Assembly: GCA_044223515.1 (NCBI GenBank)
Contig: JBGALV010000002.1
Coordinates: forward strand, 64,015 to 128,014
Direction: 5' to 3'
Source: Alphaproteobacteria bacterium
GTDB lineage: Bacteria; Pseudomonadota; Alphaproteobacteria; SHVZ01
DNA length: 64,000 bases
Shown here: one piece after another, positions 25,964-48,027 of the stretch
Position numbering within the stretch: position 1 is the first letter of the stretch
How the letters are laid out: every line of letters starts with the position of its first letter
Made by a program: the position numbers and the translations under genes
The notes under the pieces: model-generated
Databases searched by the model: none
Seen by the model: the letters and a program-made list of their open reading frames with translations, nothing else
Told to the model about the DNA's origin: nothing

Positions 25964-26863
25964 ATGTGCGGGATCGTCGGCCTCTTCCTCAAGGATCCGA
26001 AACTCGAGCCCGACCTCGGGCGGCTCCTGTCCAACATGATGGGGGTGCTATCAGATCGCGGCCCCGACAGCGCCGGCTTCGCGGTCTTCGGCCGCGGCCA
26101 GTCCGGCAACGTCAAGCTGACGGTGCGTGGCGCCGAGGGAACCGACTTCGCGGCCCTCGCCCGCAAGCTCTCCGAGGCGCTCGGCACCAAGGTCGCCGCC
26201 GTAGGCCGGCATACCCATGGCATCCTGACCCTGCCGGCGGACCGCGAGGCCGACGCCAAGGCGGCGCTGGCCAGGATCGCCCCGAAGATCGACCTCGTCG
26301 GTGCCGGCGCCCGCATGGAGCTCTACAAGGAGGTTGGCCGGCCCGAGCTGGTTGCGACCCAGTTCGGCCTCGAACGCATGCCCGGCACCCACGGCATCTG
26401 CCACACGCGCATGGCGACAGAATCGGCAGTGACCACCAACGGCGCACACCCCTTCTCGACCGGGCTCGACCAGTGCCTGGTCCACAACGGATCTCTCTCC
26501 AACCACAACGCCGTCCGCCGCGACCTGCGCCGTGACGGCATCGAGTTCGCGACCGAGAACGACACCGAGGTCGCAGCCGGCTACCTCACCGCCCGCATGC
26601 ACAAGGGTGCCAGCCTCAAGCAGGCGCTGACCGACGCGCTGACCGATCTCGACGGCTTCTACACCTTCGTCGTCGGGACCGAGTCCGGCTTCGGCGTGCT
26701 GCGCGATCCGATCGCCTGCAAGCCGGCGGTGATGGCCGAGACCGACCGCTACGTCGCCTTCGGCTCCGAATATCGCGCGCTGGTCGACCTCCCGGACATC
26801 GGCAAGGCGAAGATCTGGGAGCCGGAACCGGCCACCGTCTATTTCTGGGAGCGGCCGAATTGA
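25964..26863 (+). CDS. mgsA: class-II glutamine amidotransferase subunit (N-methylglutamate synthase subunit A-like)
   Basis: Starts MCGIVG (Ntn-hydrolase Cys1). At 299 aa it is a GltB N-domain standalone. It heads a four-gene set with GXGXG, FMN and GS-like genes. Confidence 0.7.
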   Translation: MCGIVGLFLKDPKLEPDLGRLLSNMMGVLSDRGPDSAGFAVFGRGQSGNVKLTVRGAEGTDFAALARKLSEALGTKVAAVGRHTHGILTLPADREADAKAALARIAPKIDLVGAGARMELYKEVGRPELVATQFGLERMPGTHGICHTRMATESAVTTNGAHPFSTGLDQCLVHNGSLSNHNAVRRDLRRDGIEFATENDTEVAAGYLTARMHKGASLKQALTDALTDLDGFYTFVVGTESGFGVLRDPIACKPAVMAETDRYVAFGSEYRALVDLPDIGKAKIWEPEPATVYFWERPN

Positions 26864-27552
26864 ACGCGAGCGAGCAGGTCGTCGATCTTTCGACGACCGA
26901 ACTGAGAGAGCTGAATTCCGCCCTTCACAAGCTGAAGCCCGACACCAACCAGACGCTTTGGCGCATCTCCAATCCGCGTGGCCGCCATTCTGTCGCGGTC
27001 GGCGTGGATGCGCCGGTCACCATCGAGATCGACGGCCATGTCGGCTACTACTGCGCCGGCATGAACAAGCATGCGACGGTGATCGTCAATGGTAACGCCG
27101 GCACCGGCGTCGCCGAGAACATCATGTCGGGCACCGTGCATGTGAAGGGCGATGCCAGCCAGTCGGCAGGTGCCACCGGCTGCGGCGGCATGCTGATCAT
27201 CGACGGCAACGCCTCTGCCCGCTGCGGCATCTCGATGAAGGGCGTCGACATCGTGGTGAAAGGCAGCGTCGGCCATATGTCGGCGTTCATGGCCCAGGCG
27301 GGAACCCTGGTCGTGCTCGGCGATGCAGGCGAGAGCCTCGGCGACTCGATCTACGAGGCGCGCCTTTATGTACGCGGCAAAGTGCAGGGCCTCGGCGCCG
27401 ACTGCATCGAGAAGCCGATGACCGATCATCACAAGGCCAAGCTCGTCGCCAAGCTGAGATCCGCCGGCGTCACCGGTGTCGATGTCGGCGCCTTCAAGCG
27501 CTACGGATCGGCTCGCCGCCTCTATCACTTCCACGTCGACAACGTGTACTGA
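26860..27552 (+). CDS. mgsB: glutamate synthase GXGXG-domain subunit (N-methylglutamate synthase subunit B-like)
   Basis: 230 aa with repeated GxGxG beta-helix motifs (VNGNAGTGV..KGDASQSAGATGCGG..). The start overlaps the mgsA stop. Confidence 0.7.
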   Translation: MNASEQVVDLSTTELRELNSALHKLKPDTNQTLWRISNPRGRHSVAVGVDAPVTIEIDGHVGYYCAGMNKHATVIVNGNAGTGVAENIMSGTVHVKGDASQSAGATGCGGMLIIDGNASARCGISMKGVDIVVKGSVGHMSAFMAQAGTLVVLGDAGESLGDSIYEARLYVRGKVQGLGADCIEKPMTDHHKAKLVAKLRSAGVTGVDVGAFKRYGSARRLYHFHVDNVY

Positions 27553-27555
27553 GCC

Positions 27556-28878
27556 ATGAGCCAGCCGATCACCACACCCCGCAAGTCGGCGACCTTCGAC
27601 GACTACACGCTGTCCGAGATCCGCCGCGCCGCGTCGACCGGGATCTACGACATCCGCGGCGCCGGCGCCAAGCGCAAGGTCCCGCATTTCGACGACCTGC
27701 TTTTCCTCGGCGCCTCGATCTCGCGATATCCGCTCGAAGGCTATCGCGAGCGCTGCGGCACCAACGTCATTCTGGGCGCGCGCCATGCCAAAAAGCCGAT
27801 CGAGCTCAAGATCCCGATCACCATCGCCGGCATGAGCTTCGGCTCGCTCTCGGCGAACGCAAAAGAAGCGCTCGGCCGTGGTGCCTCGATGGTGGGAACC
27901 TCGACCACCACCGGCGACGGCGGCATGACGCAGGAAGAACGCGGCCACTCCTCGCTGCTGGTCTACCAGATCCTGCCGTCGCGCTACGGCATGAACCCCG
28001 ACGACCTTCGACGGGCGGACGCGATCGAGATCGTCGTCGGCCAGGGTGCGAAGCCCGGCGGCGGCGGCATGCTGCTGGGGCAGAAGATCACGGAACGGGT
28101 CGCCGGCATGCGCGTGCTGCCGGTCGGCATCGACCAGCGCTCTGCCTGCCGCCACCCGGACTGGACCGGCCCGGACGATCTCCAGATCAAGATCGAGGAA
28201 GTCCGCGAAATCACCGATTGGGAGAAGCCGATTTACGTCAAGGTAGGCGCATCCCGCCCCTACTACGACACGGCACTGGCTGTGAAAGCGGGCGCCGACG
28301 TGGTCGTGCTCGATGGCATGCAGGGCGGTACGGCCGCGACCCAGGAAGTCTTCATCGAGAATGTCGGCCTGCCGATCCTGTCGGCGATCCGGCCGGCGGT
28401 GCAAGCGCTCATCGATCTCGGCCTGCACCGGAAGGTGCAGCTGATCGTCTCCGGCGGCATCCGCAACGGCGCCGACGTGGCGAAGGCATTGGCGCTCGGC
28501 GCCGACGCCGTCGCGATCGGCAGCGCGGCGCTGGTCGCGCTCGGCGACAACGATCCGGCGCTCGAGGCGGAGTACGCGAAGCTCGGCACCACCGCCGGCG
28601 CCTATGACGACTGGCACGAGGGCCGCGATCCCGCCGGCATCACCACTCAGGACCAGGCGCTGATGGCGCGGCTCGATCCGGTGAAGGCCGGTCGCCGGCT
28701 CGCCAACTACCTCGCCGTGATGACGCTGGAGGCGCAGACGATCGCGCGCGCCTGCGGCAAGAGCCACGTGCACAATCTCGAGCCCGAGGACCTGGTGGCG
28801 CTGACCATCGAGGCGGCGGCGATGGCACGGGTCCCTCTTGCCGGTACGAACTGGGTACCCGGCGGAGGCTCGTTCTAA
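27556..28878 (+). CDS. mgsC: glutamate synthase FMN-binding domain subunit (N-methylglutamate synthase subunit C-like)
   Basis: 440 aa, homologous to the GltB FMN/TIM-barrel domain (GMSFGSLS..VVGQGAKPGGGG..SGGIRNGADVAKALALGADAV). Confidence 0.7.
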   Translation: MSQPITTPRKSATFDDYTLSEIRRAASTGIYDIRGAGAKRKVPHFDDLLFLGASISRYPLEGYRERCGTNVILGARHAKKPIELKIPITIAGMSFGSLSANAKEALGRGASMVGTSTTTGDGGMTQEERGHSSLLVYQILPSRYGMNPDDLRRADAIEIVVGQGAKPGGGGMLLGQKITERVAGMRVLPVGIDQRSACRHPDWTGPDDLQIKIEEVREITDWEKPIYVKVGASRPYYDTALAVKAGADVVVLDGMQGGTAATQEVFIENVGLPILSAIRPAVQALIDLGLHRKVQLIVSGGIRNGADVAKALALGADAVAIGSAALVALGDNDPALEAEYAKLGTTAGAYDDWHEGRDPAGITTQDQALMARLDPVKAGRRLANYLAVMTLEAQTIARACGKSHVHNLEPEDLVALTIEAAAMARVPLAGTNWVPGGGSF

Positions 28879-28901
28879 GCAAGACGAACAGGGGGACTGT
28901 C

Positions 28902-30203
28902 ATGGCGACGGATCTGGCGAAGGCGGCGAAGGAACGAGGGATCAAGTACTTCATGATCTCCTACACCGATCTCTTCGGGACCCAGCGGGCGAAGCTGGTG
29001 CCGGCCGCGGCGATCGGAGCGATGCAGAAGTCGGGCGCGGGATTCGCCGGGTTCGCCACCTGGCTCGACATGACACCGGCCGATCCCGATCTCTTCGCCG
29101 TTCCAGATCCCGACAGCCTGATCCAGCTCCCGTGGAAGCCGGAGGTCGGCTGGCTCGCCTCGGATCTCGTCATGGACGGAAAGTCCGTCGAGCAGGCCCC
29201 ACGCAATCTCCTGAAGCGCCTCGTCGCCGAAGCCGCCTCCAAAGGCTTCGAGATGAAAACAGGCGTCGAGTGCGAGTACTTCCTGATCACGCCGGACGGC
29301 ACCCAGATCTCCGATCCTGCCGACCATCAGGCCAAGCCCTGCTACGACCAGTCGGCGCTGACCCGGCGCTACGATGTCGTCACGGAAATCTGCGATGCGA
29401 TGCTGGCGCTGGGCTGGAAGCCCTATCAGAACGATCACGAGGACGGGAACGGCCAGTTCGAGATGAACTGGGAATACGACCATGCGCTCATCACCGCCGA
29501 CCGCCACGCCTTCTTCAAGTACATGGTCAGAACCATCGCGGAGAAGCACGGGCTCCGCGCCACCTTCATGCCGAAGCCGTTCATCAACCTGACCGGCAGC
29601 GGCTGCCACGCCCATGTGTCGCTGTGGAAAGGGAAGAAGAACCTGTTCGAGGATCCGAAGGGAGAGCTAGGCCTCTCCTCCCTTGCCTACCAGTTCCTCG
29701 GCGGCATCGTTCACAACGCCGAGGCGCTCTGCGCGCTGACCAATCCGACGGTGAACTCCTACAAGCGTATCAACGCGCCGGTGACGACATCGGGTGCAAC
29801 CTGGTCGCCGAATACGGTGACCTACGCCGGCAACAACCGCACCCACATGATCCGCATCCCGGAGCCGAACCGCTTCGAGTTCCGTCTGCCGGACGGTGCG
29901 GTCAATCCGTACCTGCTGCAAGCCTCGCTTCTAGCCGCCGGCCTCGACGGCATCGCCAACAAGCGCGATCCAGGCAAGCGCCTCGACATCAACATGTACA
30001 CCGAGGGGCATACGGTGAAGGGCGCCAAGCGCCTGCCGCTCAATCTGCTCGACGCGCTCCGCAACCTCGAGAAGTCGGCTGTGTTGAAGGCCGGTCTCGG
30101 CGAGGCCTTCATGAGTTCATATCTCAAGCTCCGCCATGCCGACTGGAACGACTACGCCCGCCACCTGACCGAGTGGGAGCGGCGGACGACGCTCGACTGC
30201 TGA
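28902..30203 (+). CDS. gmaS: glutamine synthetase family gamma-glutamyl-amide synthetase (gamma-glutamylmethylamide synthetase-like)
   Basis: 433 aa with GS catalytic motifs (..GVECEYFL..; ..NPTVNSYKRI..; ..RIPEPNRFEFR..). It lacks the adenylylation loop and sits directly after the mgsABC-like genes. Confidence 0.7.
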   Translation: MATDLAKAAKERGIKYFMISYTDLFGTQRAKLVPAAAIGAMQKSGAGFAGFATWLDMTPADPDLFAVPDPDSLIQLPWKPEVGWLASDLVMDGKSVEQAPRNLLKRLVAEAASKGFEMKTGVECEYFLITPDGTQISDPADHQAKPCYDQSALTRRYDVVTEICDAMLALGWKPYQNDHEDGNGQFEMNWEYDHALITADRHAFFKYMVRTIAEKHGLRATFMPKPFINLTGSGCHAHVSLWKGKKNLFEDPKGELGLSSLAYQFLGGIVHNAEALCALTNPTVNSYKRINAPVTTSGATWSPNTVTYAGNNRTHMIRIPEPNRFEFRLPDGAVNPYLLQASLLAAGLDGIANKRDPGKRLDINMYTEGHTVKGAKRLPLNLLDALRNLEKSAVLKAGLGEAFMSSYLKLRHADWNDYARHLTEWERRTTLDC

Positions 30204-30847
30204 TGGCAGCGCGCAAACCTATACCGAAGCGCGGCGACCTCGCGACCGGGTCGAGCGCGCCGAACTCCGCCGAGCGGCGCACGGTCGAGGAAGCGGTCGG
30301 CATCCGCGTCCGCGCATTACGCAAGCGCCTCGACATGACCGTCGCCGAACTCGCCGGCCAGGCCGGGCTTTCGGTCGGCATGCTGTCGAAGATCGAGAAC
30401 GGTGCGACCTCGCCGTCGCTGACGACGCTGCAGGCTCTGGCGGACGCCTGCAACGTGCCGATCTCCAGCCTGTTTGCCGAACTCGAGGAAGCCCGCGACT
30501 GCTCTTACGTCCCGCGCGGCCAGGGCGTCACCATCGACCGGCGTGGCACCAAGGCCGGGCACCAGTACCAGCTTCTCGGCCACTCGCTCCGCGGCGATGT
30601 CGTGGTCGAGCCCTACCTGATCACGCTGTCGAAGGAAGCCGAGCCCTACGCCAACTTCCGCCATGCCGGCGTCGAGGTCATCTACATGCTCTCAGGCGCC
30701 GTCGCGTATCGTCACGCCGACAAGGTGTACGACCTCGGCCCCGGCGACACCCTCTTCTTCGACGCCGGGGCGCCGCATGGTCCGTCGATCCTGACCAAGC
30801 TTCCCAGCCAGTACCTCTCGATCATCATCTACCCGCGCGACGCCTGA
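30203..30847 (+). CDS. XRE-family HTH plus cupin domain transcriptional regulator (PuuR-like)
   Basis: HTH LDMTVAELAGQAGLSVGMLSKIENG, then a cupin (..GDTLFFDAGAPHG..). The ATG overlaps the gmaS stop (TGATG). Confidence 0.75.
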   Translation: MAARKPIPKRGDLATGSSAPNSAERRTVEEAVGIRVRALRKRLDMTVAELAGQAGLSVGMLSKIENGATSPSLTTLQALADACNVPISSLFAELEEARDCSYVPRGQGVTIDRRGTKAGHQYQLLGHSLRGDVVVEPYLITLSKEAEPYANFRHAGVEVIYMLSGAVAYRHADKVYDLGPGDTLFFDAGAPHGPSILTKLPSQYLSIIIYPRDA

Positions 30848-31494
30848 GCTTCGGGCCACCCGAGAATCCCACTCGCCATCCGGGCCAACAGGATGACCAG
30901 GCCGATCGTGACCGCATGGACGCCCAGATCCATGAAGGTCACGTCGAACGGATGGAAGAACTGCAAAAGCACCGCCGCGATTGCAGCCACGCCGAGCCCG
31001 CCTGACACCGCGACCGGTGTCGGGTTCAGCGGCCGTGCCTTGGAAAGGACCAGGAGGAGTGCGGCACCGAGCGGCAGGCTGACGCCGAGCAGTAGGCGGA
31101 AACAGTCCGTGCTCTCGCCGAGCGTCCAGCCATCGGGGCCGAAAAGGATCCAGTGCTGCCAGCAGCTGTAACCGCTGGAGGCGATCCACAGGACCAGCGG
31201 CGGGATCGGCAGCCAAGCCCAGGACATCGACCGATCCGGCAGGCTGAGGTGGAAGGCGGCGACTATCGCCGCGATGCCGGTCAGCACGGTGCCGGCGAGT
31301 TCCAGGCGCAGCTTCGTTTCCTCGATGCGAGACATGAAGAGGGGCAGGTCGGCAAAGCTCGCAACCCCCAGCGCCGAGGCGAGGGCGACCACGCCCAGCC
31401 ACAAGCTTGCCCGCGTCGTCGGCGAGCGCAGACGCCTGACCGGGCGGCCGTCGGCAGCTAGATTCGCTATCAAGTCGTCGAGAGGCTCGGCCAT
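30829..31494 (-). CDS. nrsF: NrsF-family (DUF1109) membrane anti-sigma factor
   Basis: 221 aa with six TM segments and an N-terminal cytosolic region. It lies immediately downstream of, and coupled to, the ECF sigma gene, the same arrangement as Caulobacter sigF-nrsF. Confidence 0.75.
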   Translation of the reverse strand: MAEPLDDLIANLAADGRPVRRLRSPTTRASLWLGVVALASALGVASFADLPLFMSRIEETKLRLELAGTVLTGIAAIVAAFHLSLPDRSMSWAWLPIPPLVLWIASSGYSCWQHWILFGPDGWTLGESTDCFRLLLGVSLPLGAALLLVLSKARPLNPTPVAVSGGLGVAAIAAVLLQFFHPFDVTFMDLGVHAVTIGLVILLARMASGILGWPEAQASRG

Positions 31495-31495
31495 C

Positions 31496-32062
31496 CTATC
31501 CGCCCTTCAGCTTGGCCCGGAGCGCCTTGATCGCCCGGTGCACGTTGACCTTGAGACCCCCGACCGACTGGCCGCTCACCGCCGAGGCCTCCACCAGCGA
31601 CATCTCCTTCAGCTTCACCAGCTCCAGCGCCTCCCGCTGCCCGCGCGGAAGAGCCGCCAGCGCCGCAGCCAACTGGTCCGTCGCCTCGCGACCCTCCAGC
31701 TCCCTGTTCGCCAGGGGGTCGGCAAAGGTTTCATAAGAAGTGTCGTCCCGGATCTCCATCGTCTCGGTCCGGGTCCGGCGGCGGATCGCGTCGATCGAGC
31801 GGCGCCGAGCAACCGCCACCAGCCAGGGCATGAATGGCCGGCCAGGGTCGTAGGTGTGGCGGATGCGGTGGAGGGTCAGCAGCACGTCTTGGACGACGTC
31901 GTCGACCCGGTCCGCTCTTCGATGGTGATGGGCAACGACCGCACGCACCATCGGCACGATCTCCTTCAGCAGGCGCGCATAGTCCGCCTGATTGCCGTCC
32001 TGCGCCGAGGTCATCAGACCTACCCAACGCGGCTCGTCGCTCTGCCGCCCGCCTGCCGCCAT
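31496..32062 (-). CDS. sigF: ECF RNA polymerase sigma factor (SigF-type)
   Basis: Region 2 (DDVVQDVLLTLHRIRHTYDPGRPFMPWLVAVARRRSIDAIRR) and region 4 (LPRGQREALELVKLKEMSLVEASAVSGQSVGGLKVNVHRA) are present. Confidence 0.8.
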   Translation of the reverse strand: MAAGGRQSDEPRWVGLMTSAQDGNQADYARLLKEIVPMVRAVVAHHHRRADRVDDVVQDVLLTLHRIRHTYDPGRPFMPWLVAVARRRSIDAIRRRTRTETMEIRDDTSYETFADPLANRELEGREATDQLAAALAALPRGQREALELVKLKEMSLVEASAVSGQSVGGLKVNVHRAIKALRAKLKGG

Positions 32063-32106
32063 CCGCTCCTTCCCGGTTCACACACGCGTGACCACGATCG
32101 CCCTCT

Positions 32107-32131
32107 GTAACTTCCGCCGACATTCGGCGAA
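32107..32131 (+). promoter_or_regulatory. Candidate SigF-type ECF promoter (GTAACT-N15-CGAA) upstream of bufA
   Basis: tGTAACTtccgccgacattcggCGAAcc lies ~70 nt upstream of the bufA ATG. It matches the GTAACC-N16-CGAA pattern I recall for Caulobacter sigmaF-dependent promoters. That recollection is unverified. Confidence 0.4.
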
Positions 32132-32199
32132 CCGAAGGGCATGGGACGCCGGCAGGGGCCGACGCTTCCCCTCACCGAAGCATAAGAGGAGTTCGTAAC

Positions 32200-32481
32200 A
32201 TGCAGAAGCCTTCGCTCAAGACCGTCGCCGGCTCTACCCTTCTCGGCGCGCTCGCCGTCGCCGTCGTCTCGGTTGCCGCCGCCCAGGCGGCACCGGTCGC
32301 GCAGCCGATGGGATCGGAGAAGTGCTACGGCATCGCCAAGGCCGGCAAGAACGACTGCGCCGCCGCCGGCGCTCATTCCTGCGCCGGTCAGGCGACCAAA
32401 GACATGGACAAGGCCTCCTACGTCTACCTGCCGGCCGGCCTCTGCGCCAAGATCGCCGGCGGCAACATGGGGGCGATGTAA
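32200..32481 (+). CDS. bufA: DUF2282-family secreted Cys-containing precursor peptide (bufferin BufA1-like RiPP precursor)
   Basis: 93 aa with Sec signal peptide ...AAAQA, then a core with 4 Cys in conserved spacing (EKCYG, NDCAA, HSCAG, GLCAK). An AGGAG RBS is present. Confidence 0.75.
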
Positions 32482-32518
32482 GTCCGTATCCGCGCCGCCT
32501 GCTCGGAAGCTCACCGGC

Positions 32519-33376
32519 ATGTCCACCGATCGCATCCCGGCGTCCGCCGGCATCGGCCTCCGCTTCCCGCATCATCGGGAAGTCGCGGCAGAGCCCGGAG
32601 GCATCGCCTGGGTCGAGGTCCATCCGGAGAACTACATGGCGGGCGGCGCGGTGCTCGACCTGCTCGTCTCAATCCGCCGGGATCTGCCCGTCTCGCTTCA
32701 TGGCGTCGGGCTCTCGCTGGGGAGCGCCGCCGGCCTCGACCGCGATCATCTCGCGGGCCTCAGGAAGATGATCGACCGGATCGAGCCGGGGCTCGTTTCC
32801 GATCACCTTTCCTGGAGCGTCGCCGGTGGCGTCTATCTGCCCGACCTCCTGCCGCTTCCCTATACCGAGGAAGCGCTCGCGGTCGTCGCGGCCAACATCG
32901 ATCGCGCGCAAGAGGCGCTGAAGCGGCCGCTGCTGATCGAGAACCCGTCGCGCTATCTCGACTTCAAGCATGCGACCCTGTCCGAGGCCGAATTCCTGAC
33001 CGCGCTGGTGGAGCGTACCGGCTGCCGCCTGCTCTACGATCTCAACAACCTGCTGGTGAGCGCGCGGAACCTCGATAAGGATCCGCTCGCGTCCCTGTTC
33101 TCGATCCCGCTCGACGCAGTCGCCGAAATCCACCTCGCCGGGCATGCACGCAAGCGGCTCGACGACGGCAGCGAGATCCGGATCGACGACCATGGATCGG
33201 CGGTGTCGCCGGAAGTCTGGGATCTCTACAGCCGCTTCATCCATCGCGCCGAAGCGGTTCCGACGCTGATCGAATGGGACACCGCGCTGCCCGCCTTGAC
33301 GGTGCTGTGTGCCGAAGCGGCCAAGGCCCAGAGGTTCCTGGACATCGCCTCGACCGGAGAGCGTCGTGTCGCCTGA
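32519..33376 (+). CDS. bufB: DUF692 / MNIO (multinuclear non-heme iron oxidase, MbnB-TglH family) peptide-modifying enzyme
   Basis: TIM-barrel xylose-isomerase-like DUF692 motifs (GIGLRFPH..EVHPENYM..VSDHLSW..HLAGH..IEWDT). Confidence 0.8.
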   Translation: MSTDRIPASAGIGLRFPHHREVAAEPGGIAWVEVHPENYMAGGAVLDLLVSIRRDLPVSLHGVGLSLGSAAGLDRDHLAGLRKMIDRIEPGLVSDHLSWSVAGGVYLPDLLPLPYTEEALAVVAANIDRAQEALKRPLLIENPSRYLDFKHATLSEAEFLTALVERTGCRLLYDLNNLLVSARNLDKDPLASLFSIPLDAVAEIHLAGHARKRLDDGSEIRIDDHGSAVSPEVWDLYSRFIHRAEAVPTLIEWDTALPALTVLCAEAAKAQRFLDIASTGERRVA

Positions 33377-34112
33377 TCTCGCGACGCTGCAAGCCGACAT
33401 CGTGCGCATGATCCTCGCCGATGGCCGGATGGTTCCTTCGTTCCTGGACGACGACGCCGGGCTTAGGCTCGCCGTCTATCGCAACACCGCGCTCAGCGGC
33501 CTCTGCGACGCGCTCAGGCTCAGCTATCCACTGATCGAAAAGGTCGTCGGCACACCGTTCTTCGACCAAACCGCGCTCGCCTTCGCACGCGTGAACCCGC
33601 CGGCGGATCCGGTACTCGCCCGCTACGGCGCCGGCTTTCCGGCCTTCCTGGAATCCCTGTCGAGCCTCGCCGCCCTTCCCTACCTGCCGGACCTCGCCCG
33701 GCTCGAGTGGGCCATCGACCAAGTAGGCTACGAACCAACGGTGGAAGATCGCGGCGTCACGCTCGAGGTCGAAGGGCGCATCGCGACCGTGACGCTTAGC
33801 CCCTCACTCCGCCTGCTCGCGACGGCCACGAGCGTCCTCCCGCTCTGGCGGGCGCTCGACGCCGGCGACGACGAAGGGCTCGGAGCCGTGGACTGGAACG
33901 CCGGCCCGCAATTCCTGGCCGTCCACTATGGCAAGGACGGCGTCCGGATCACGCCGCTCTCGGAATCGGCGTGGCGCCTCGCCGCCGCTCTCCTCGCCGG
34001 CGACGATCTCGACATGGCGACCGAAGCAGCCGAGGCCGCGATCGAGCTTCTCTCCACCCCTTTCATTCGCATCGCCATAGCCGATCCTGACGGATCGATG
34101 AGGATCTCATGA
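33366..34112 (+). CDS. bufC: DUF2063 family protein (MNIO partner, BufC/MbnC-like)
   Basis: Follows DUF692 with an overlap. Sequence VSPDLATLQADIVRMIL...; the DUF2063-after-DUF692 architecture is conserved. The start is probably the GTG at 33366. Confidence 0.65.
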   Translation: MSPDLATLQADIVRMILADGRMVPSFLDDDAGLRLAVYRNTALSGLCDALRLSYPLIEKVVGTPFFDQTALAFARVNPPADPVLARYGAGFPAFLESLSSLAALPYLPDLARLEWAIDQVGYEPTVEDRGVTLEVEGRIATVTLSPSLRLLATATSVLPLWRALDAGDDEGLGAVDWNAGPQFLAVHYGKDGVRITPLSESAWRLAAALLAGDDLDMATEAAEAAIELLSTPFIRIAIADPDGSMRIS

Positions 34113-34567
34113 GCACGCTTGCCGCCGCCGGGTCGAACAGCCTCGGCCGTTCCGTCCGTACCGTCATCTCGGCCCTGGACGGGCTTCCCTGGACCGTCCT
34201 CGCTTTGCCGATGCGCCTCGCCGGCTTCGCCGTATTCTGGCGCGCCGGCATGGTCAAGCTCGCCAGCTGGGAGAGCACAGTCCTGCTGTTCCGTGAGGAG
34301 TACCAAGTGCCGGTGCTGCCGCCGGAGCTGGCGGCTTATCTCGCCACATCCGTCGAGCTCGGCTGCGCGATCGCGCTTCTGCTCGGGCTTCTGACGCGGT
34401 TCTCGGCGCTGGCGCTGCTCGGCCTGACCTCCGTGATCCAGCTCTTCGTCTATCCGGAGGCCTGGCCGACCCACATCCAATGGCTCGCCTTCCTGCTGCC
34501 GCTCCTCGCCCGCGGCGCCGGCGACCTGTCTCTCGATCATCTGATCGCCCGCAGGCTTGCCCGCTGA
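34109..34567 (+). CDS. DoxX family membrane protein
   Basis: 152 aa with 4 TM helices and DoxX-like sequence (..FAVFWRAGMVKL...LLGLTSVIQLFVYPEAW). Coupled to bufC (ATGA). Confidence 0.75.
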   Translation: MSTLAAAGSNSLGRSVRTVISALDGLPWTVLALPMRLAGFAVFWRAGMVKLASWESTVLLFREEYQVPVLPPELAAYLATSVELGCAIALLLGLLTRFSALALLGLTSVIQLFVYPEAWPTHIQWLAFLLPLLARGAGDLSLDHLIARRLAR

Positions 34568-34597: not shown

Positions 34598-35476
34598 ATG
34601 TTCTTCGAGGGCTTCTCACTCGAGACGGTCGAGGCCAACGGCCAGAAGATCCGCTTGCGCCGCGGCGGCAGCGGACCACCGCTCCTGCTGCTCCACGGCA
34701 ACCCACAGACCCATGCCATGTGGCACAAGGTGGCGCCGGTACTGGCCAGGCGCTTCGCCGTCATCTGCCCGGACATCAGAGGCTACGGCTTCTCCTCTTC
34801 GCCGCCGCCCACGCCCGACAGCCGCCACTACGCCAAACGCGAGATGGCGAAGGATCTGGTCGCGTTGATGAAGCACTTCGGCTTCCCGCGCTTCGGCGTG
34901 GTCAGCCACGATCGCGGCGCACGCGTCGCCCATCGGCTCGCCATCGATCATCCGGACGCGGTGGAGAGGCTCTGCGTCATGGACATCGTGCCGACGATCG
35001 AGCACTTCGAGCGCACCGAGATGGCCTTCGCGCTCGGCTACTATCACTGGTTCTTCCTGGCGCAGCCGTACGACAAGCCCGAACGCATGATCCTTCGGGA
35101 CGTCGAGGACTGGTTCGACAGCCATACGACGCGTGAACCCAAGGACAAGGGCTTCTTCCATCCCGAGGCGCGTGCCGACTACGTCGCTGCTTTGCGCGAG
35201 CCTGGCACCGTCGCCTCGATCTGCGAGGACTATCGGGCGGCGACGGGCATCGACCTCGTCCATGACCGAGGGAGCCGATCGGCCGGGCAACGCATCCACT
35301 GCCCTCTTCTCGTACTTTGGGGCGCCAAGGGCAAGATCGGCCAGTGGTACCAGCCGATCGAGCTGTGGCGGCGATATGCGGATGGACCAGTAACCGGCGG
35401 GCCGGTCGCCAGCGGCCACTACCTTGCCGAGGAAGCGCCGGACGAGACGATCGCCCGGCTCGACGCCTTCCTGTGA
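34598..35476 (+). CDS. alpha/beta-hydrolase haloacetate (fluoroacetate) dehalogenase-like protein
   Basis: Close in motif order to characterised fluoroacetate dehalogenases. It has LLLHGNPQTHAMW, nucleophile elbow VVSHDRGARVAHR (Asp nucleophile), YYHWFF and a C-terminal HY dyad. Confidence 0.7.
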   Translation: MFFEGFSLETVEANGQKIRLRRGGSGPPLLLLHGNPQTHAMWHKVAPVLARRFAVICPDIRGYGFSSSPPPTPDSRHYAKREMAKDLVALMKHFGFPRFGVVSHDRGARVAHRLAIDHPDAVERLCVMDIVPTIEHFERTEMAFALGYYHWFFLAQPYDKPERMILRDVEDWFDSHTTREPKDKGFFHPEARADYVAALREPGTVASICEDYRAATGIDLVHDRGSRSAGQRIHCPLLVLWGAKGKIGQWYQPIELWRRYADGPVTGGPVASGHYLAEEAPDETIARLDAFL

Positions 35477-35497: not shown

Positions 35498-37183
35498 CTA
35501 GTAGGTGTACCGCTGGATCGAGATCTGCCGGCCGCTCGGCAGCGTGATCGTGCCGGTGGTCGTCGAACTGAAGGTCATCGTCGTCGTGCCCCGGTTCGCG
35601 GTCGCGCTCGCGTTGCCCGACGATCCGGTCAGCGTCGGGCCGTTGCCGAACTCGAACAGGTCGCCCGACCAAGTCGAGGTCGAGCTCGACTGTCGCACCA
35701 GGTTGCCGGTTCCGACGTACCAGTTGGCCTGACCGCTGGCGCCGGTACTGCCATAGGCGTAGCCGACGGTGAAGAAATTAGAGGTCGTGGTCCCTCCGCT
35801 CGTCGTCGTGTTCTGGCTTTCGATCAGCCAGCCGGTGCCACTGTAGTCGGGCGACCACCACCAGCCCGTCTCCGGTGCCCAGCTCTGGGTCGAGCCGACG
35901 GTCGAACCGGTGAGCGGGTAGCGGACGAGGGCGTAGCTGGTCGAGCTGCCGCTGGTCGGCGTGATCGTGACGGTCGCCGCAGTCGACGAAGAGAAGGTCA
36001 CCGAGAAGGTGCCCGGCGAGGTCGTACTGGTCGGCGACGTGTTCGCGACACCGATGTTCGCCAAGGTGGTGCCGTTGGAAAACTGCTCGAGCGCGCCGGT
36101 GCAGGTGGTCGACCCCAGCATGCACGGGATCACGTACCAGACGTCGTCGCCGCCAGCGCCGTAGGTGTAGATGCCGATGAAAAGCTTCGAGGCGTTGGTC
36201 TCGATCGCGTAGCCGCGGCCCGAGGACGTGGTCGTGTACCAGAGCCCGTTCGCGGGCGTCGTCAGCGCGTAGGTGTTGCGCCCGGTAACCGATCGCGAGC
36301 CGCGGAAGCAGCCAACCGTGTACGGAAACTCTCGGTTGCCGTGATAGTGGTAGATATCCTTCACCTGCCCGTCGGCCTGGGTCACGCTGTGCTGGTGGCC
36401 ATGGCATTCGTCGAGCTCGGCATTGGTGATCGTCGAGCCGCTCGTACCCTTCGGCCCATAGATGCCGTAGCCGTCGAGCGCCCATCCCACCTGAACCGAA
36501 TGACCGGAGGTCGAGTCGGTAAAGCAGTTGGTCAGGTGGTGATAGTGGTAGGTACCGGTCGTCTCGGGGTGACCTTCGCACAGGTCCTGGATCTCGTTGG
36601 CGACGGCGTCGCGCCCATCCGCATCGAGCGCATCGAAAAGCATGCCGCCCGTGAACAGGTAGCCCACCTCGCCCGAGACGCAGGTCGGGGTCGACGAATA
36701 GACCGGATCGGACGGCAACTCGGCATAGCGCCGGCTGACCGCCATCGACGACGGGTTGGGGTGGTATTGAGCCTGCCCCGCCTCGCTCGAGGAAGAGACC
36801 GGGAAGGTGCCGGTGTAGTGGTTCGGCAGGCCGTTGCCGCCGAGATAGCGGATGCTGCCGCTGGTCACCTCGCGCGTCTGCGAGGTCCAGGCGTTCGAGC
36901 CCTCGACGATCGGCTTGCCCGAGAACGAGATGACGTTCGAGGAGCTGACCCAGGAGAAGCCGTAGCCGGACGTGCCGGAGGTGAAGCGGCAATGATAAAT
37001 GGTGTTTCGCGCTGCGGACCGCATCGAGACACCGTCGACCGCCGCCGTGCCGGTCGCTCCCTGCGCCTTGAATGTCGTGTAGGAGGTCACCGCCGGCGTG
37101 GCGATATCGGCCGCCGAGGCAATGCCCGATCCGGCGAGCAAAAGCCCAACAACCGCTCCGAGAGCGGACAGGCACGACTTCAT
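35498..37183 (-). CDS. secreted YHYH-motif protein with Thr/Ser/Gly-rich C-terminal region
   Basis: Signal peptide MKSCLSALGAVVGLLLAGSGIASA. Repeated YHYH motifs (GTYHYHHLTNC, DIYHYHGN). The C-terminal ~250 aa are ~40% Thr/Ser/Gly. A GGGGAG RBS is present. The longer 615-aa ORF start is unlikely. Confidence 0.6.
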   Translation of the reverse strand: MKSCLSALGAVVGLLLAGSGIASAADIATPAVTSYTTFKAQGATGTAAVDGVSMRSAARNTIYHCRFTSGTSGYGFSWVSSSNVISFSGKPIVEGSNAWTSQTREVTSGSIRYLGGNGLPNHYTGTFPVSSSSEAGQAQYHPNPSSMAVSRRYAELPSDPVYSSTPTCVSGEVGYLFTGGMLFDALDADGRDAVANEIQDLCEGHPETTGTYHYHHLTNCFTDSTSGHSVQVGWALDGYGIYGPKGTSGSTITNAELDECHGHQHSVTQADGQVKDIYHYHGNREFPYTVGCFRGSRSVTGRNTYALTTPANGLWYTTTSSGRGYAIETNASKLFIGIYTYGAGGDDVWYVIPCMLGSTTCTGALEQFSNGTTLANIGVANTSPTSTTSPGTFSVTFSSSTAATVTITPTSGSSTSYALVRYPLTGSTVGSTQSWAPETGWWWSPDYSGTGWLIESQNTTTSGGTTTSNFFTVGYAYGSTGASGQANWYVGTGNLVRQSSSTSTWSGDLFEFGNGPTLTGSSGNASATANRGTTTMTFSSTTTGTITLPSGRQISIQRYTY

Positions 37184-37338
37184 CGTCTCGACTCCCCAGT
37201 CAACCACCCCGTCCCAAGATAAAGGTTGAGTAAGCGCTAAGCCAAGTGTGCTTTGGAGCCCGGTATCGCTTGCCGCCGCACGTCTCCGCATGGACAATCG
37301 CGGTGCCGCAGTGCCTTCACGTCTCAGGATAATTCGCC

Positions 37339-38556
37339 ATGCCACACCCTCTCTCCGACCGCGCCAAGGACCTTGCCTCCCGGGTGACCCGGTTCATGGA
37401 TGCCCATGTCTACGAGGCCGAAGGTCCTTACAAGAGGCACACCGACGAGGCCGCCGACCGCTGGACCGTTCCGCCCGCGATGGACGAGCTCAAGGCCAAG
37501 GCAAAGGCGCAGGGGCTGTGGAACCTGTTCCTGCCCGAATCCGACCTGGGCGCGGGACTCACCAACAGCGAGTACGCGCCGCTCTGCGAGATCATGGGAC
37601 GCTCGCTGATCGGGGCCGAGGCCTTCAACTGCAGCGCGCCCGATACCGGCAACATGGAGGTGCTGGTCCGTTACGGCACGCCCGAGCAGAAGAAGGCATG
37701 GCTGGAGCCTCTGCTCGACGGCAAGATCCGGTCTGCCTTCTGCATGACCGAGCCCGATGTCGCCTCCTCGGACGCGACCAACGTTCGCTGCTCGATCGAG
37801 CGCGAGGGCAATAGCGGCTACGTCATCAACGGGCGCAAATGGTATGCGAGCGGAGCGATGGATCCGCGCTGCGAGATCTTCATCGTGATGGGGAAGACCG
37901 ACCCGAACGCGCCGAAGCACCAGCAGCAGTCCATGATCCTGGTCCCGCGCTCGACGCCCGGGGTCAAGATCATCCGTCCGATGCACGTGTTCGGCAGCGA
38001 CGACGCACCACACGGCCATGCAGAGATCGTCTTCGAGAACGTCAGGGTGCCGGCCGAGAACATCCTGCTCGGTGAGGGCCGCGGCTTCGAGATCGCGCAA
38101 GGCCGGCTCGGCCCCGGACGCATCCACCATTGCATGCGACTCATCGGCTGCGCCCAGCGCGCGCTCGAGCTGATGTGCATCCGCGCCCAGGAGCGCGTCG
38201 CCTTCGGCCGCAAGCTCGCCGATCACGGCCCGGTACGCGAGGAAATCGCGCGTTCGGCCTGCGAGATCGAGCAGGCGCGCCTTCTGACCCTGGCCGCTGC
38301 CGAGAAGATGGACAAGGAAGGCAACAAGTCGGCCCGCGACGCGATCGCGATGATCAAGATCGTTGCGCCGATGATGGCGCAGACCGTGATCGACCGTGCG
38401 ATCCAGATCCATGGGGCGATGGGCGTGAGCCAGGACACCTTCCTCGTAGATGCCTGGAAGTACGCGCGGACCATCCGGATCGCCGACGGTCCCGATGCCG
38501 TCCATCTCGCCGCACTCGGCAAGCAGGTGATCGGACGCTACGGGGTGAAGGCCTGA
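37339..38556 (+). CDS. acyl-CoA dehydrogenase family protein
   Basis: 405 aa with ACAD N-, middle and C-domains (..[14 protein letters not shown].. catalytic region; ..[11 protein letters not shown]..). Confidence 0.85.
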
Positions 38557-41405: not shown

Positions 41406-42407
41406 ATGCTGGCTAAACCGGGATTTCGGTTACTCGCCTCGCGTCTCAAGTCCACGAGCAAGACGGTCCGAAAAGCGATTTTCCCGGTGGGTGGACTCGG
41501 AACGCGTTTCCTGCCGGCAACCAAGGCGGTTCCGAAGGAAATGCTGCCGGTCGTGGATAAGCCCTTGATCCAGTACGCAGTCGAGGAAGCCCTCGCCGCC
41601 GGCATCGAGGAGTTCATCTTCGTCACCAGCCGCGGCAAGGAAGCGATCCAGGATCACCTCGATCGAAGCCAGGATCTGGAGACAGCCCTTCTGTCGCGCG
41701 GAAAGAAAAACGAAGCGGCCGCTCTCAACACGTGGCTGCCCGAGCCGGGCAAGGTCACCTTTCTCCGCCAGCCGAAGCCGCGTGGTCTCGGCCACGCCGT
41801 GTGGTGCGCCCGGTCCCAGATCGGCAACGAGCCGTTCGCGGTCATTCTCCCCGACGACCTGATCCTTGCGGTCACACCTTGCTTGCGCCAAATGATCCAC
41901 GCCCACGCCCAGGTCGGCGGCAACCTCCTGGCACTGATGCCGGTTCCTCGCGCTCATATCTCACGCTATGGCGTCATCGACCCGGTGACACAGCATGGAC
42001 GCCTGATCGAAGCCAGCGGCGTGGTCGAGAAGCCGCCCGCGGAACGCGCGCCATCGGCGCTCGCCGTGATCGGCCGCTACATCCTGCAGCCCGATATCTT
42101 CCGGTACCTCGAAGAGGTGGAACCGGGTGCCGGCGGAGAAATCCAGCTCACCGACGCGATCGCGAGGATGATCTCCGACCACGCATTGCACGGCTACCGC
42201 TTCGACGGACGACGCTTCGATTGCGGCGACAAGCTCGGTTTTCTCGAAGCGAACCTCGCCTTCGCACTCGGACGAGCCGACCTCGCCGAAGGTGCCGCAG
42301 AAATCCTTCAGCGATATGCGCATCCGCACGCGGAGCCGGAATTCGATCAGGAGATCGTACCGAATCCGCTTCCCGCGGCTTCGAACGGCGTTCGCATCAG
42401 GGCCTAG
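41406..42407 (+). CDS. galU: UTP--glucose-1-phosphate uridylyltransferase
   Basis: KAIFPVGGLGTRFLPATKAVPKEMLPVVDKPLIQY is the signature N-terminal nucleotide-binding motif of GalU. Confidence 0.85.
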   Translation: MLAKPGFRLLASRLKSTSKTVRKAIFPVGGLGTRFLPATKAVPKEMLPVVDKPLIQYAVEEALAAGIEEFIFVTSRGKEAIQDHLDRSQDLETALLSRGKKNEAAALNTWLPEPGKVTFLRQPKPRGLGHAVWCARSQIGNEPFAVILPDDLILAVTPCLRQMIHAHAQVGGNLLALMPVPRAHISRYGVIDPVTQHGRLIEASGVVEKPPAERAPSALAVIGRYILQPDIFRYLEEVEPGAGGEIQLTDAIARMISDHALHGYRFDGRRFDCGDKLGFLEANLAFALGRADLAEGAAEILQRYAHPHAEPEFDQEIVPNPLPAASNGVRIRA

Positions 42408-43027
42408 GCTCGCGCCGACGCACGGCGACCAACGTTTTGCCGCCCGTCCGTCATGCGCCGTAGCGCCTCGCGGCCGCGTGACAACCGCGACATGACAGTG
42501 CCGATCGGCAGGTCGAGCACCTGGGCAGTTTCCTCGTAGCTGAGGCCTTCAAGACCGACCAGCATCACCACCCGATGCTGCTCGACGGGCAAGGATTCGA
42601 GCGCGCGCGCAAGATCGCGAAGCTCGATCGCGGCAGGCTGCGATGCGGGCTGCGGCAAGGAACCGGCGACCTCGTCGAAGTCTACCGCGTCCGTCGTCTC
42701 GGCGCGGCGGCTCACCTGATCGACATGGACGTTGTGCAGGACAGTGAAGAGATAGGCCCGCACATTCCGGATGTCGGCCGGAAAATTGGGCCGCGAAAGC
42801 GCGCGCGCCAGGCATTCCTGCACCAGGTCGTCGGCATCGCCGCGACCGGCAGACAGAACACGCGCGTATCGGCGGAGATCGGCAACGTACCGCTCCACCC
42901 CACTGGGTGAATTGCTCACGATTGGCCCCCTGCCCTCGAGGTCGGCGCCGCGATGGGCGCCGACGCGGTCTGCGTCCCTCAAGAAATAAAGATCCGGGAC
43001 CCGCGGCAGCGTGACATTGCCCGACAC
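42404..43027 (-). CDS. ECF sigma factor (sigma-70 family), no adjacent anti-sigma
   Basis: Region 2 (DADDLVQECLARAL..AYLFTVLHN) and region 4 (LPVEQHRVVMLVGLEGLSYEETAQVLDLPIGTVMSRLSRGREAL). The true start is probably internal to the 207-aa ORF. Confidence 0.7.
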   Translation of the reverse strand: MSGNVTLPRVPDLYFLRDADRVGAHRGADLEGRGPIVSNSPSGVERYVADLRRYARVLSAGRGDADDLVQECLARALSRPNFPADIRNVRAYLFTVLHNVHVDQVSRRAETTDAVDFDEVAGSLPQPASQPAAIELRDLARALESLPVEQHRVVMLVGLEGLSYEETAQVLDLPIGTVMSRLSRGREALRRMTDGRQNVGRRASARA

Positions 43028-44984: not shown

Positions 44985-45194
44985 CTCATGCCCCTCTCAA
45001 GCCCTTGTTTTGACTGTGCGGTCGACCCTTCCGACGGGTCAACCGGAAGGGCATCGCGCGGAAACAGGGGTACCTAGGTGCCGTGACAGCTAAACCCCAG
45101 CCAAATCACTGAAATGCCACACGTGATTAGCCAATTCTAAGGCGTGACAGCGGCAAGCCTTGCCACGGTTTTCAAATATAAAAGAGGCCTCCCC

Positions 45195-45782
45195 ATGAGC
45201 GCGATGATGCATGAAGACATTCTCGACTGCCTTCCCCACATCAACGGTTTCGCGCGACGGCTGACCCGCGACCGAGCGATGGCCGACGATCTGGTGCAGA
45301 CCGCGGTCATGCGGGCGCTCGCCCATGCCCACCAGTACAAGCCGGGCACCAATTTTCGGGCCTGGATCACCACCATTCTCCGCAACTCTTACTTCAACGA
45401 GATGCGGGCCCTGAGCCGGCGTCCGAGCGTCGACATCGACGTCGAGGGCATCGCCGCGATCACCAGCGGCGGCCAGGAAGAGCGCATGAATGTTCGCGAC
45501 TTTTGCCGTGCTTTCCGCCGCCTGTCGGCCGAGCAGCAGAAGGCCCTCCTTCTGGTCGGCCTGGACGGCCGTTCCTATGAGGAAGCCGCGGAGATCGCCA
45601 ACTGCGCCGTCGGCACCATGAAGAGCCGCGTCTCTCGCGCCCGCCTTCAGCTCCAGCAACTGCTGGAAGGCAGCGGCGCGAAGCTGTCGATGCTGCCGAT
45701 CGCGCTGGCCGCCGCCAGCGCCGACGAGGACCGTCCGCGCCGCCGCCGCGCCGCGGCGAAGGACCAGCCGACCGCCCACTAA
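45195..45782 (+). CDS. ECF sigma factor, candidate EcfG-type general stress sigma
   Basis: Region 2 DDLVQTAVMRAL..FRAWITTILRNSYFNEMR and region 4 LSAEQQKALLLVGLDGRSYEEAAEIANCAVGTMKSRVSRAR. An AAAAGAGG RBS precedes ATG 45195. It sits in the phyR-nepR stress island. Confidence 0.7.
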   Translation: MSAMMHEDILDCLPHINGFARRLTRDRAMADDLVQTAVMRALAHAHQYKPGTNFRAWITTILRNSYFNEMRALSRRPSVDIDVEGIAAITSGGQEERMNVRDFCRAFRRLSAEQQKALLLVGLDGRSYEEAAEIANCAVGTMKSRVSRARLQLQQLLEGSGAKLSMLPIALAAASADEDRPRRRRAAAKDQPTAH

Positions 45783-45840: not shown

Positions 45841-45950
45841 AGCTCTTCGATGCTTGAATCCTCGCAACCATTCGCACCGAGCGACGGTTGATCACCCGAC
45901 GACGCCTGCGACGCGGCAGGTCGCTCCAAGATCAGTTTCGGAGGAGAGAA

Positions 45951-46367
45951 ATGCTTAAGATTCTTCTCTTGAGCGCCGCAGTGACGACCGGCATTGCCGC
46001 GCCGTCCTTCGCCCAGACTCAGCCGTCGACCTCGCCCAGCGCTCCCGCCACGACCATGCCGGTGACGCCTCCGGTCACGGGACCTGCGCCGGGTGCGATC
46101 AAGGGCAGCACCCTCATCAACATGGACGTCAAGAATGGCGCGGACGAGAAGGTCGGCGATATCAACGACGTGATCGTGGCCGCGGACGGCAAGGTCCAGC
46201 AGGTGATCATTTCTGTCGGCGGTTTCCTCGGCGTGGGAACCCGCAAGGTGGCGGTCGCCTGGAACGACGTGAAGGTCGACACCGCTGCCGACGTGGCGTT
46301 CGTGAACCTCTCACGCGAGCAGCTGGCGGCCGTGCCCGAGTTCAAGGACCGTCGCACCACGCCGTAA
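45951..46367 (+). CDS. secreted PRC-barrel domain protein
   Basis: Signal peptide MLKILLLSAAVTTGIAAPSFA. PRC-barrel core ..LINMDVKNGADEKVGDINDVIV..DGKVQQVIISVGGFLGVG.. GGAGGAG RBS. Confidence 0.7.
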   Translation: MLKILLLSAAVTTGIAAPSFAQTQPSTSPSAPATTMPVTPPVTGPAPGAIKGSTLINMDVKNGADEKVGDINDVIVAADGKVQQVIISVGGFLGVGTRKVAVAWNDVKVDTAADVAFVNLSREQLAAVPEFKDRRTTP

Positions 46368-47890: not shown

Positions 47891-48027
47891 CTGTTTCTCC
47901 GTTTTAGGCGGGCCGGCGCGACCGTGCCCGACCGCCATTTTGTCCCTAGGTCGAAGGAGGATCCCGTGGTCGCCGAAGCTATCGGTGGCCACAGCTTGTG
48001 GGTGGATTGGATAAGACCTTGATTGCC

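Follow-up and report, generated by a model that had tools for sequence, protein, structure and literature searches.

A probable Buf1-type bufferin operon divergent from sigF-nrsF in an uncultured alphaproteobacterium

What is made by an operon that places a short cysteine-containing precursor before a DUF692 enzyme, a DUF2063 protein and a DoxX membrane protein, and which signal switches it on? The question is raised by positions 30829-34567 of a 64,000-nucleotide (nt) stretch, here called the window, of Alphaproteobacteria bacterium (GCA_044223515.1, contig JBGALV010000002.1, 64,015-128,014, forward strand), in which such an operon lies back to back with genes for an extracytoplasmic function (ECF) sigma factor, SigF, and a membrane anti-sigma factor, NrsF. 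The four-gene unit, known as “gig” or buf1, is on record from Caulobacter, Cupriavidus, Legionella and Bordetella. The architecture of the locus has been published before (Kohler 2012; Leprevost 2024; Microb Genom 2025), and the class is also named captophorins. In a survey of about 14,000 loci encoding multinuclear non-heme iron oxidases (MNIOs), sigma-factor and NrsF genes were a regular feature of Buf1, not Buf2, clusters (PMC12452194). The locus in the window is very probably a Buf1-type bufferin operon, bufA-bufB-bufC-doxX, read from a sigmaF promoter and controlled by the divergent SigF and a six-transmembrane (TM) NrsF.

The region consists of six intact genes in two divergent units. 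An earlier note on this DNA had placed six open reading frames (ORFs) here, and a check of coordinates and strands returned the same six. Lengths are given in amino acids (aa), together with the elements of the intergenic region:

30829-31494, minus strand: nrsF, membrane anti-sigma factor (DUF1109/NrsF), 221 aa (PF06532)
31496-32062, minus strand: sigF, ECF sigma factor, 188 aa (Sigma70_r2, Sigma70_r4_2, TIGR02937)
32107-32131, plus strand: sigmaF-type promoter of bufABCD, -35 GTAACT at 32107-32112, 15-nt spacer, -10 CGAA at 32128-32131
32137-32152, plus strand: conserved block GGGCATGGGACGCCGG, predicted start of the bufA 5' untranslated region (UTR), possible hairpin (alignment of relatives)
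32184-32191, plus strand: bufA ribosome-binding site (RBS) AAGAGGAG, 8 nt 5' of the ATG (read from the sequence; invariant in relatives)
32200-32481, plus strand: bufA, bufferin-1 precursor (DUF2282/BufA1), 93 aa (PF10048)
32200-32289 and 32290-32478, plus strand: parts of bufA, codons of the putative signal peptide and of the 63-aa core, respectively
32519-33376, plus strand: bufB, MNIO (DUF692) maturase, 285 aa (NF050167, PF05114)
33366-34112, plus strand: bufC, DUF2063 partner protein, 248 aa (PF09836, model fold match)
34109-34567, plus strand: bufD/doxX, DoxX-family membrane protein, 152 aa (PF07681)

The gene junctions fit two operons: 1 nt lies between sigF and nrsF, the end of bufB overlaps the start of bufC by 11 nt, and doxX begins within the last 4 nt of bufC (ATGA). 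The divergent region between sigF and bufA measures 137 bp. Two starts deserve mention: that of bufB is refined to the ATG at 32519, which replaces a mechanical ORF start at 32273, and that of bufC is the GTG at 33366, in agreement with the 248-aa NCBI protein P0121. The G+C content at third codon positions (GC3) is 0.79-0.86 in the four of the six ORFs caught by the GC3 screen, as in coding sequence. The buf genes have no paralogues in the rest of the window. A sigma-70 promoter scan gave no match, a terminator scan gave two terminator-like sites, both intragenic and on the wrong strand, and an Rfam scan of 30.5-37.5 kb gave one chance match (E = 0.8). For comparison, related loci were taken from a genome-collection scan, 80 for gene content and 77 for promoters. 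Nearly all of the 80 carry bufABC(D), with doxX after bufC in 64, and about a quarter carry a divergent sigF-nrsF pair. The nearest species representatives are metagenome-assembled genomes (MAGs) labelled Rhodospirillaceae, Rhizobium sp. and Alphaproteobacteria, with 77-85% identity in BufB.

The families named in the earlier note (DUF2282, DUF692, DUF2063 and DoxX, besides the ECF sigma factor and NrsF) are all recovered above Pfam thresholds. BufA matches PF10048 (DUF2282/BufA1) with 81.2 bits against a cut-off of 22.4, and its 93 aa fall inside the 80-120 aa range of Buf1 precursors. An identical protein is already recorded in NCBI and ENA, and close homologues carry the NCBI name “BufA1 family periplasmic bufferin-type metallophore”. 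The note had described a secreted precursor with four cysteines, which agrees with what was found. BufA has exactly four cysteines (residues 42, 53, 61 and 82), and its N-terminus combines Lys3 and Lys7 with a single hydrophobic segment at residues 9-27 (Kyte-Doolittle hydropathy 2.11) and an AQA/AP site after residue 30. By the heuristics of hydropathy and the AXA rule this pattern, which is common to the homologues, suggests a Sec-type signal peptide. The four cysteines are 99% conserved among 78 homologues, 76 of which have exactly four.

If cleavage after AQA30 is assumed, the core cysteines take positions 12, 23, 31 and 52. The earlier note had proposed a comparison of cysteine spacing with Caulobacter, and the outcome is an exact correspondence with the published numbering of Caulobacter vibrioides BufA1 (PMC11626156). 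In that peptide Cys23 and Cys31 are each lighter by 4.03 Da, as 5-thiooxazoles, and Cys12 and Cys52 form a disulfide, for a total of -10 Da (PMC11626156). By analogy, Cys II and III would be the expected thiooxazole pair here, and Cys I and IV the expected disulfide pair. The loss of four hydrogens that the note had foreseen for every cysteine does not hold for characterised Buf1, in which only Cys II and III are so modified. The unmodified core (APVAQ...MGAM), which holds four methionines, has a computed monoisotopic mass of 6189.88 Da; two thiooxazoles and one disulfide would bring it to about 6179.80 Da (-10.08 Da), and to -8 Da once the disulfide is reduced. A sequence search with BufA against the PDB gave no match. 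Its AlphaFold2 model is of low confidence, with a predicted local distance difference test (pLDDT) score of 57.8, and for that reason was kept out of fold searches and of any use for disulfide geometry. It contains two short strands and a short helix, placed as in the published description.

The enzyme is assigned at a finer level than its family. BufB passes the NCBIfam equivalog model NF050167 (MNIO_BufB, “MNIO family bufferin maturase”) with 347.4 bits against a cut-off of 310, and PF05114 (MbnB_TglH_ChrH) with 325.5 bits, above the gathering threshold. Among 81 homologues, nine residues (H61, H96, E141, D174, N177, H205, D223, H225 and E252) reach a conservation of 90% or more, and in pairwise alignments these positions pair with identical residues in MbnB (7fc0), TglH (8hci_D) or the Histophilus somni DUF692 protein (3bww). 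Their order and spacing reproduce the iron-ligand set of MbnB, which consists of His54, His90, Glu133, Asp163, Asn166, His192, Asp208, His210 and Glu239 (PMC9060507). BufC matches PF09836 (DUF2063) with 67.7 bits over residues 8-95, and its AlphaFold model (pLDDT 92.1) has its best PDB fold matches in TglI (8hci_A, 8hi7_A; E = 2e-5), the partner of the MNIO TglH, and in NGO1945 (3dee), the DUF2063 prototype. The fold search was used because the sequence matches of BufC in the PDB were designed tetratricopeptide-repeat proteins and thus spurious. Taken with the PF09836 match, the whole-protein fold match points to the MNIO partner type with a putative C-terminal domain resembling a RiPP recognition element. 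As the iron ligands are conserved and the BufC fold matches MNIO partners, both proteins look functional. The operon is completed by DoxX (PF07681, 58.4 bits), which in Caulobacter is dispensable both for modification and for copper protection, and which is a conserved accessory protein of the buf operon.

The link between this operon and the divergent sigma factor lies in the promoter. In Caulobacter, sigmaF binds GTAACC-N16-CGAA, and transcription starts 61 nt 5' of the CC3254 start codon (PMC3511200). On the bufA strand of the window, TGTAACT-N15-CGAA lies at 32107-32131 and ends 69 nt before the bufA ATG. It is the only match to GTAAC-N15-19-CGAA on either strand of the 64 kb, where about 0.5 would be expected by chance; since it falls within the 137-bp region and on the correct strand, a chance origin is very unlikely. 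An alignment with the four closest sequences (L001, L002, L004 and L074) shows invariant -35 (CTGTAAC) and -10 (CGAACC) elements around a freely varying spacer, which is a promoter-like footprint. Among the 77 related loci, GTAAC-N16/17-CGA[A/T] within 200 nt upstream of bufA is present in all 20 that are linked to sigF (a divergent sigF at more than 45% identity) and in only 4 of the 57 others (Fisher p = 7e-15). In two of these four an ECF sigma gene of lower similarity occupies the same position. The Caulobacter sigF-nrsF architecture, to which the earlier note had likened the locus, is thus borne out by the divergent pair and by a conserved promoter of the sigmaF type.

In the gammaproteobacterial members of the comparison (L010, L013, L018, L019, L022, L023, L034, L048, L049 and L055) the bufA promoter reads TGTAACC-N15-CGAT, with CGAT, not CGAA, as the -10 element. 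Only some 15-20 nt separate its start from the sigF start codon, and in these relatives the promoter of the divergent sigF must therefore overlap with the 5' region of bufA. In another locus (L012, 3781-5633) an insert of about 1.8 kb, which, judged by eye, seems to code for a membrane-anchored adenylate/guanylate cyclase-like protein, separates sigF from bufA, and the sigmaF-type motif is retained directly upstream of bufA.

A further conserved element of the intergenic region is the block GGGCATGGGACGCCGG, which differs by one base only across five related sequences. RNAalifold pairs it with a downstream GTCCC..CCC, and in L074 the loop of this hairpin is deleted and the stem retained. Compensatory changes are absent from the alignment, and the bufA 5' UTR hairpin is not claimed as an RNA element.

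The regulators themselves are of the expected kind. SigF, which comprises regions 2 and 4 only, passes the Pfam thresholds for Sigma70_r2 (50.1 bits) and Sigma70_r4_2 (37 bits) and the NCBIfam model TIGR02937 (sigma70-ECF) with 82.6 bits against 42.9; its RBS, GGAAGGAG, and its ATG are conserved among relatives. NrsF passes PF06532 with 58.9 bits against 26.8. The six TM segments that the earlier note had ascribed to it are seen in part by hydropathy, which gives five clear segments and one weaker, at about residues 93-110, behind a K/R-rich N-terminal stretch of 28 residues. NrsF has only two cysteines, C111 (19/19 homologues) and C131 (18/19), which flank the predicted periplasmic TM3-TM4 loop, the periplasmic side being deduced from an N-in topology. 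The pair would fit the two conserved periplasmic cysteines of Caulobacter NrsF, C131 and C181 (PMC3511200), with the reservation that the spacing is 20 residues here vs a gap of 50 in Caulobacter numbering and that a residue-for-residue match is not established. Just upstream of the sigF RBS, at 32075-32093 in minus-strand reading, lies a conserved and partly palindromic sequence, GGTCACGCGTGTGTGAACC, which contains the 8-bp palindrome CACGCGTG and could be an operator or a non-sigmaF promoter of sigF.

From these parts a working cycle can be proposed. By homology, NrsF would sequester SigF at the inner membrane until a periplasmic stress, metal ions or an oxidant, was sensed through the cysteine pair flanking the TM3-TM4 loop and SigF was freed. 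RNA polymerase carrying SigF would then initiate a few bases past the CGAA at 32128-31, so that the 5' UTR would measure about 60 nt. BufC would bind the 93-aa BufA precursor, and the iron enzyme BufB would oxidise Cys53 and Cys61 (core Cys II and III) to 5-thiooxazoles. The peptide would be exported by Sec and cleaved by signal peptidase after Ala30, a disulfide would form between Cys42 and Cys82, and the 63-residue product would chelate excess periplasmic copper. The assignment of the heterocycle as thiooxazole or oxazolone-thioamide has been debated; recent work favours thiooxazole in bufferins and their relatives. Whether a metal or an oxidant is the inducer is not readable from the sequence. 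SigF/NrsF homologues answer different signals in different bacteria: chromium, cadmium and copper in Caulobacter, hypochlorite or reactive oxygen species (ROS) in Azospira, Brucella and Bradyrhizobium.

Several points weigh against this picture. All the evidence is at the level of sequence, and the host is an uncultured alphaproteobacterium seen only in MAG contigs. The signal peptide of BufA is called from hydropathy and the AXA rule only, and the low-confidence model lends the disulfide geometry no independent support. The promoter, GTAACT-N15-CGAA, is one base and one spacer position away from the Caulobacter consensus. Unlike in Caulobacter, no sigmaF motif precedes sigF: GTAAC-N16/17-CGA[AT] is absent from the whole minus strand of the window, and autoregulation is thus not supported. 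In Caulobacter, where autoregulation is partial, the sigF promoter is itself not solely sigmaF-dependent and sigF is not strongly autoregulated (PMC3511200). A second, unidentified regulator also drives it there. Finally, sensors of the NrsF family elsewhere answer hypochlorite or ROS, and induction by copper or other metals is not established for the locus in the window.

This last point leads to an alternative that keeps every gene in place and changes the role, namely defence against oxidants or reactive chlorine, in which NrsF would sense oxidation of its periplasmic cysteine pair and the thiol-bearing peptide would serve for redox buffering or as a scavenger. In Azospira, SigF/NrsF homologues do answer chlorite or hypochlorite, in Bradyrhizobium they are described as ROS-responsive (EcfF/OsrA), the Brucella homologue governs resistance to hypochlorous acid, DoxX homologues are tied to oxidative and sulphur stress, and a core peptide with four methionines and thiol-bearing heterocycles would suit the task. 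However, the sigmaF regulon of Caulobacter is not induced by ROS-generating agents (PMC3511200), its buf1 operon specifically aided growth under copper stress, with the heterocycles required for copper binding, and the sigmaF target operon in Azospira is yedYZ-mrpX, not a bufferin operon. A role in oxidant defence is accordingly regarded as unlikely, although it is the likeliest of the alternatives. That the genes belong instead to the oxazolin/HvfA (EGKCG-repeat) or the methanobactin branch of the MNIO systems, with another chemistry or function such as copper acquisition, is suggested by sub-threshold matches of BufB to HvfB (205 bits), ApyH, MbnB and ChrH and by weak matches of BufC and DoxX to HvfC and HvfX, all from MNIO systems acting on cysteine. 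The scores themselves speak against it, with HvfB at 205 bits vs a cut-off of 360 and MbnB (TIGR04159) at 45.7 vs 325, whereas the BufB model is passed; HvfC at 25 vs 142 and HvfX at 58.8 vs 80 are likewise below the NCBIfam cut-offs. The precursor is moreover a DUF2282 protein that lacks the EGKCG motif, the partner is a DUF2063 protein, and no gene for MbnA, MbnC or TonB-dependent uptake adjoins the locus, so that this reading is extremely improbable. Hardly more credible is a decaying or silent copy, whose ORFs look intact but are unexpressed or non-functional. The origin of the sequence in a metagenome-assembled genome and a sigF gene that lacks an upstream promoter of the sigmaF type would agree with it, but the six ORFs are full-length with the high GC3 typical of coding sequence, and the catalytic, cysteine, RBS and promoter elements are kept among relatives whose BufB shows 77-85% identity.

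The Buf1 reading is sharpened by comparison with characterised systems. The closest is Caulobacter vibrioides buf1 (CCNA_03363-03366 / CC3254-3257) with sigF-nrsF (CC3253-CC3252), which has the same gene order and the same adjacent regulators. The two also share the Sec signal peptide, as predicted here, the core cysteines at 12/23/31/52 and a sigmaF-type promoter about 60-70 nt upstream of the precursor start. They differ in the length of the core (63 residues vs 68 in Caulobacter BufA1) and in the residue that follows Cys II, which is Ala here and Lys there. Unlike in Caulobacter, neither a buf2 operon nor an msrP/yedY gene is present within the 64-kb window, and the host is an uncultured Rhodospirillaceae-like alphaproteobacterium. 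The gold-induced genes (gig) operons of Cupriavidus metallidurans and Legionella pneumophila contain the same DUF2282-DUF692-DUF2063-DoxX unit and are metal-induced; their regulators and inducers were established in other hosts, and the likeness drawn here is one of gene content, not of sequence.

More distant systems share parts of the plan. The oxazolin/HvfABC and fontiphorin/gonophorin systems (EGKCG-repeat 'captophorins') have in common with the locus an MNIO and its DUF2063 partner, often a DoxX protein, Sec-exported precursors that contain cysteine, and copper-binding thiooxazole products. Their precursor is a Lys-Cys repeat peptide, whereas the precursor here is a folded four-cysteine DUF2282 domain. 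Methanobactin (MbnABC) relies on the same set of MNIO iron ligands to turn cysteines of a ribosomal peptide into a copper-binding heterocycle, but differs in its partner MbnC, in its short, leader-dependent precursor that has no Sec signal and in its oxazolone-thioamide chemistry, and unlike the product proposed here it is a secreted chalkophore for copper acquisition. The SigF/NrsF-YedYZ-MrpX system of Azospira suillum resembles the locus on the regulatory side, with a divergent sigF-nrsF beside the target operon, a common type of SigF promoter and a protective periplasmic peptide exported by Sec. Its target is a Met-rich scavenger peptide together with a methionine sulfoxide reductase, not an MNIO-modified cysteine peptide, and its inducer is reactive chlorine species. 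Every Buf1 feature that can be read from a sequence is found at the locus, and those that define oxazolin and methanobactin systems are absent from it; the operon is thus predicted to be an uncharacterised member of the known Buf1 family.

The surroundings add genes of a more local distribution. Downstream, at 34598-35476 on the plus strand, lies a gene for an alpha/beta hydrolase of the fluoroacetate dehalogenase / Alr0039 family (PDB 3qyj, E = 2e-85; 9c9f, E = 3e-84). It starts 30 nt past doxX, no terminator is predicted between the two, and its RBS is covered by a small hairpin (CGCCTCC-GACTA-GGAGGCG). L002, L003 and L004 have the gene and L074 lacks it. It may share a transcript with the buf operon, in the lineage of these relatives only. 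Convergent to it, at 35498-37345 on the minus strand, is the gene for a secreted YHYH protein (PF14240, 55.9 bits) with a signal peptide around MKSCLSALGAVVGLLLAGSGIASA, the His-rich motifs YHYHH and YHYHG, and a long C-terminal half rich in Ser, Thr and Gly. No sigmaF-type promoter lies near it. It neighbours the buf genes solely in the four closest MAGs, and in L074 it comes immediately after doxX. Both were rejected as members of the cluster, since their co-occurrence with it is confined to the four closest relatives, among which L074 lacks the hydrolase. That at least one of these lineage-specific extras (a hydrolase co-transcribed under SigF, the YHYH protein or the 5' UTR hairpin) represents a new accessory or post-transcriptional control of bufferin production is quite improbable.

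On the other side, genes at 25964-30847 (plus strand) encode a class-II glutamine amidotransferase, a GXGXG protein, a protein with a glutamate-synthase flavin mononucleotide domain and a glutamine-synthetase-like enzyme, followed by an XRE helix-turn-helix (HTH)/cupin regulator. The cluster looks like one for amine or N-methylglutamate-type assimilation. The 3' end of the regulator gene overlaps that of nrsF by 19 nt, and the two genes are syntenic in L002 and L074. Farther away, 8-13 kb downstream of the buf locus, two more ECF sigma genes (PhyR_sigma2-like region 2) and a PhyR-type anti-anti-sigma response regulator occupy 42404-43027 (minus strand), 45144-45782 (plus strand) and 47045-47992 (minus strand), with a PRC-barrel protein among them at 45888-46367. 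These sigma and PhyR genes are an alphaproteobacterial general stress response module, which supports an alphaproteobacterial origin.

The locus is real but ordinary, a standard copy of a described gene set. It adds one more uncharacterised case, from an uncultured Rhodospirillaceae-like alphaproteobacterium, to a family of thousands, and it opens no new question. Buf1 clusters with a sigma factor and NrsF are published and very common (PMC12452194), and the family is named automatically by NCBI. A reading of the sequence by itself proved able to recognise the bufferin architecture, and the masses predicted for the BufA core can be used in peptide expression work. In the 77 related loci, a sigmaF-type promoter before bufA and an adjacent sigF-nrsF pair go together almost without exception.

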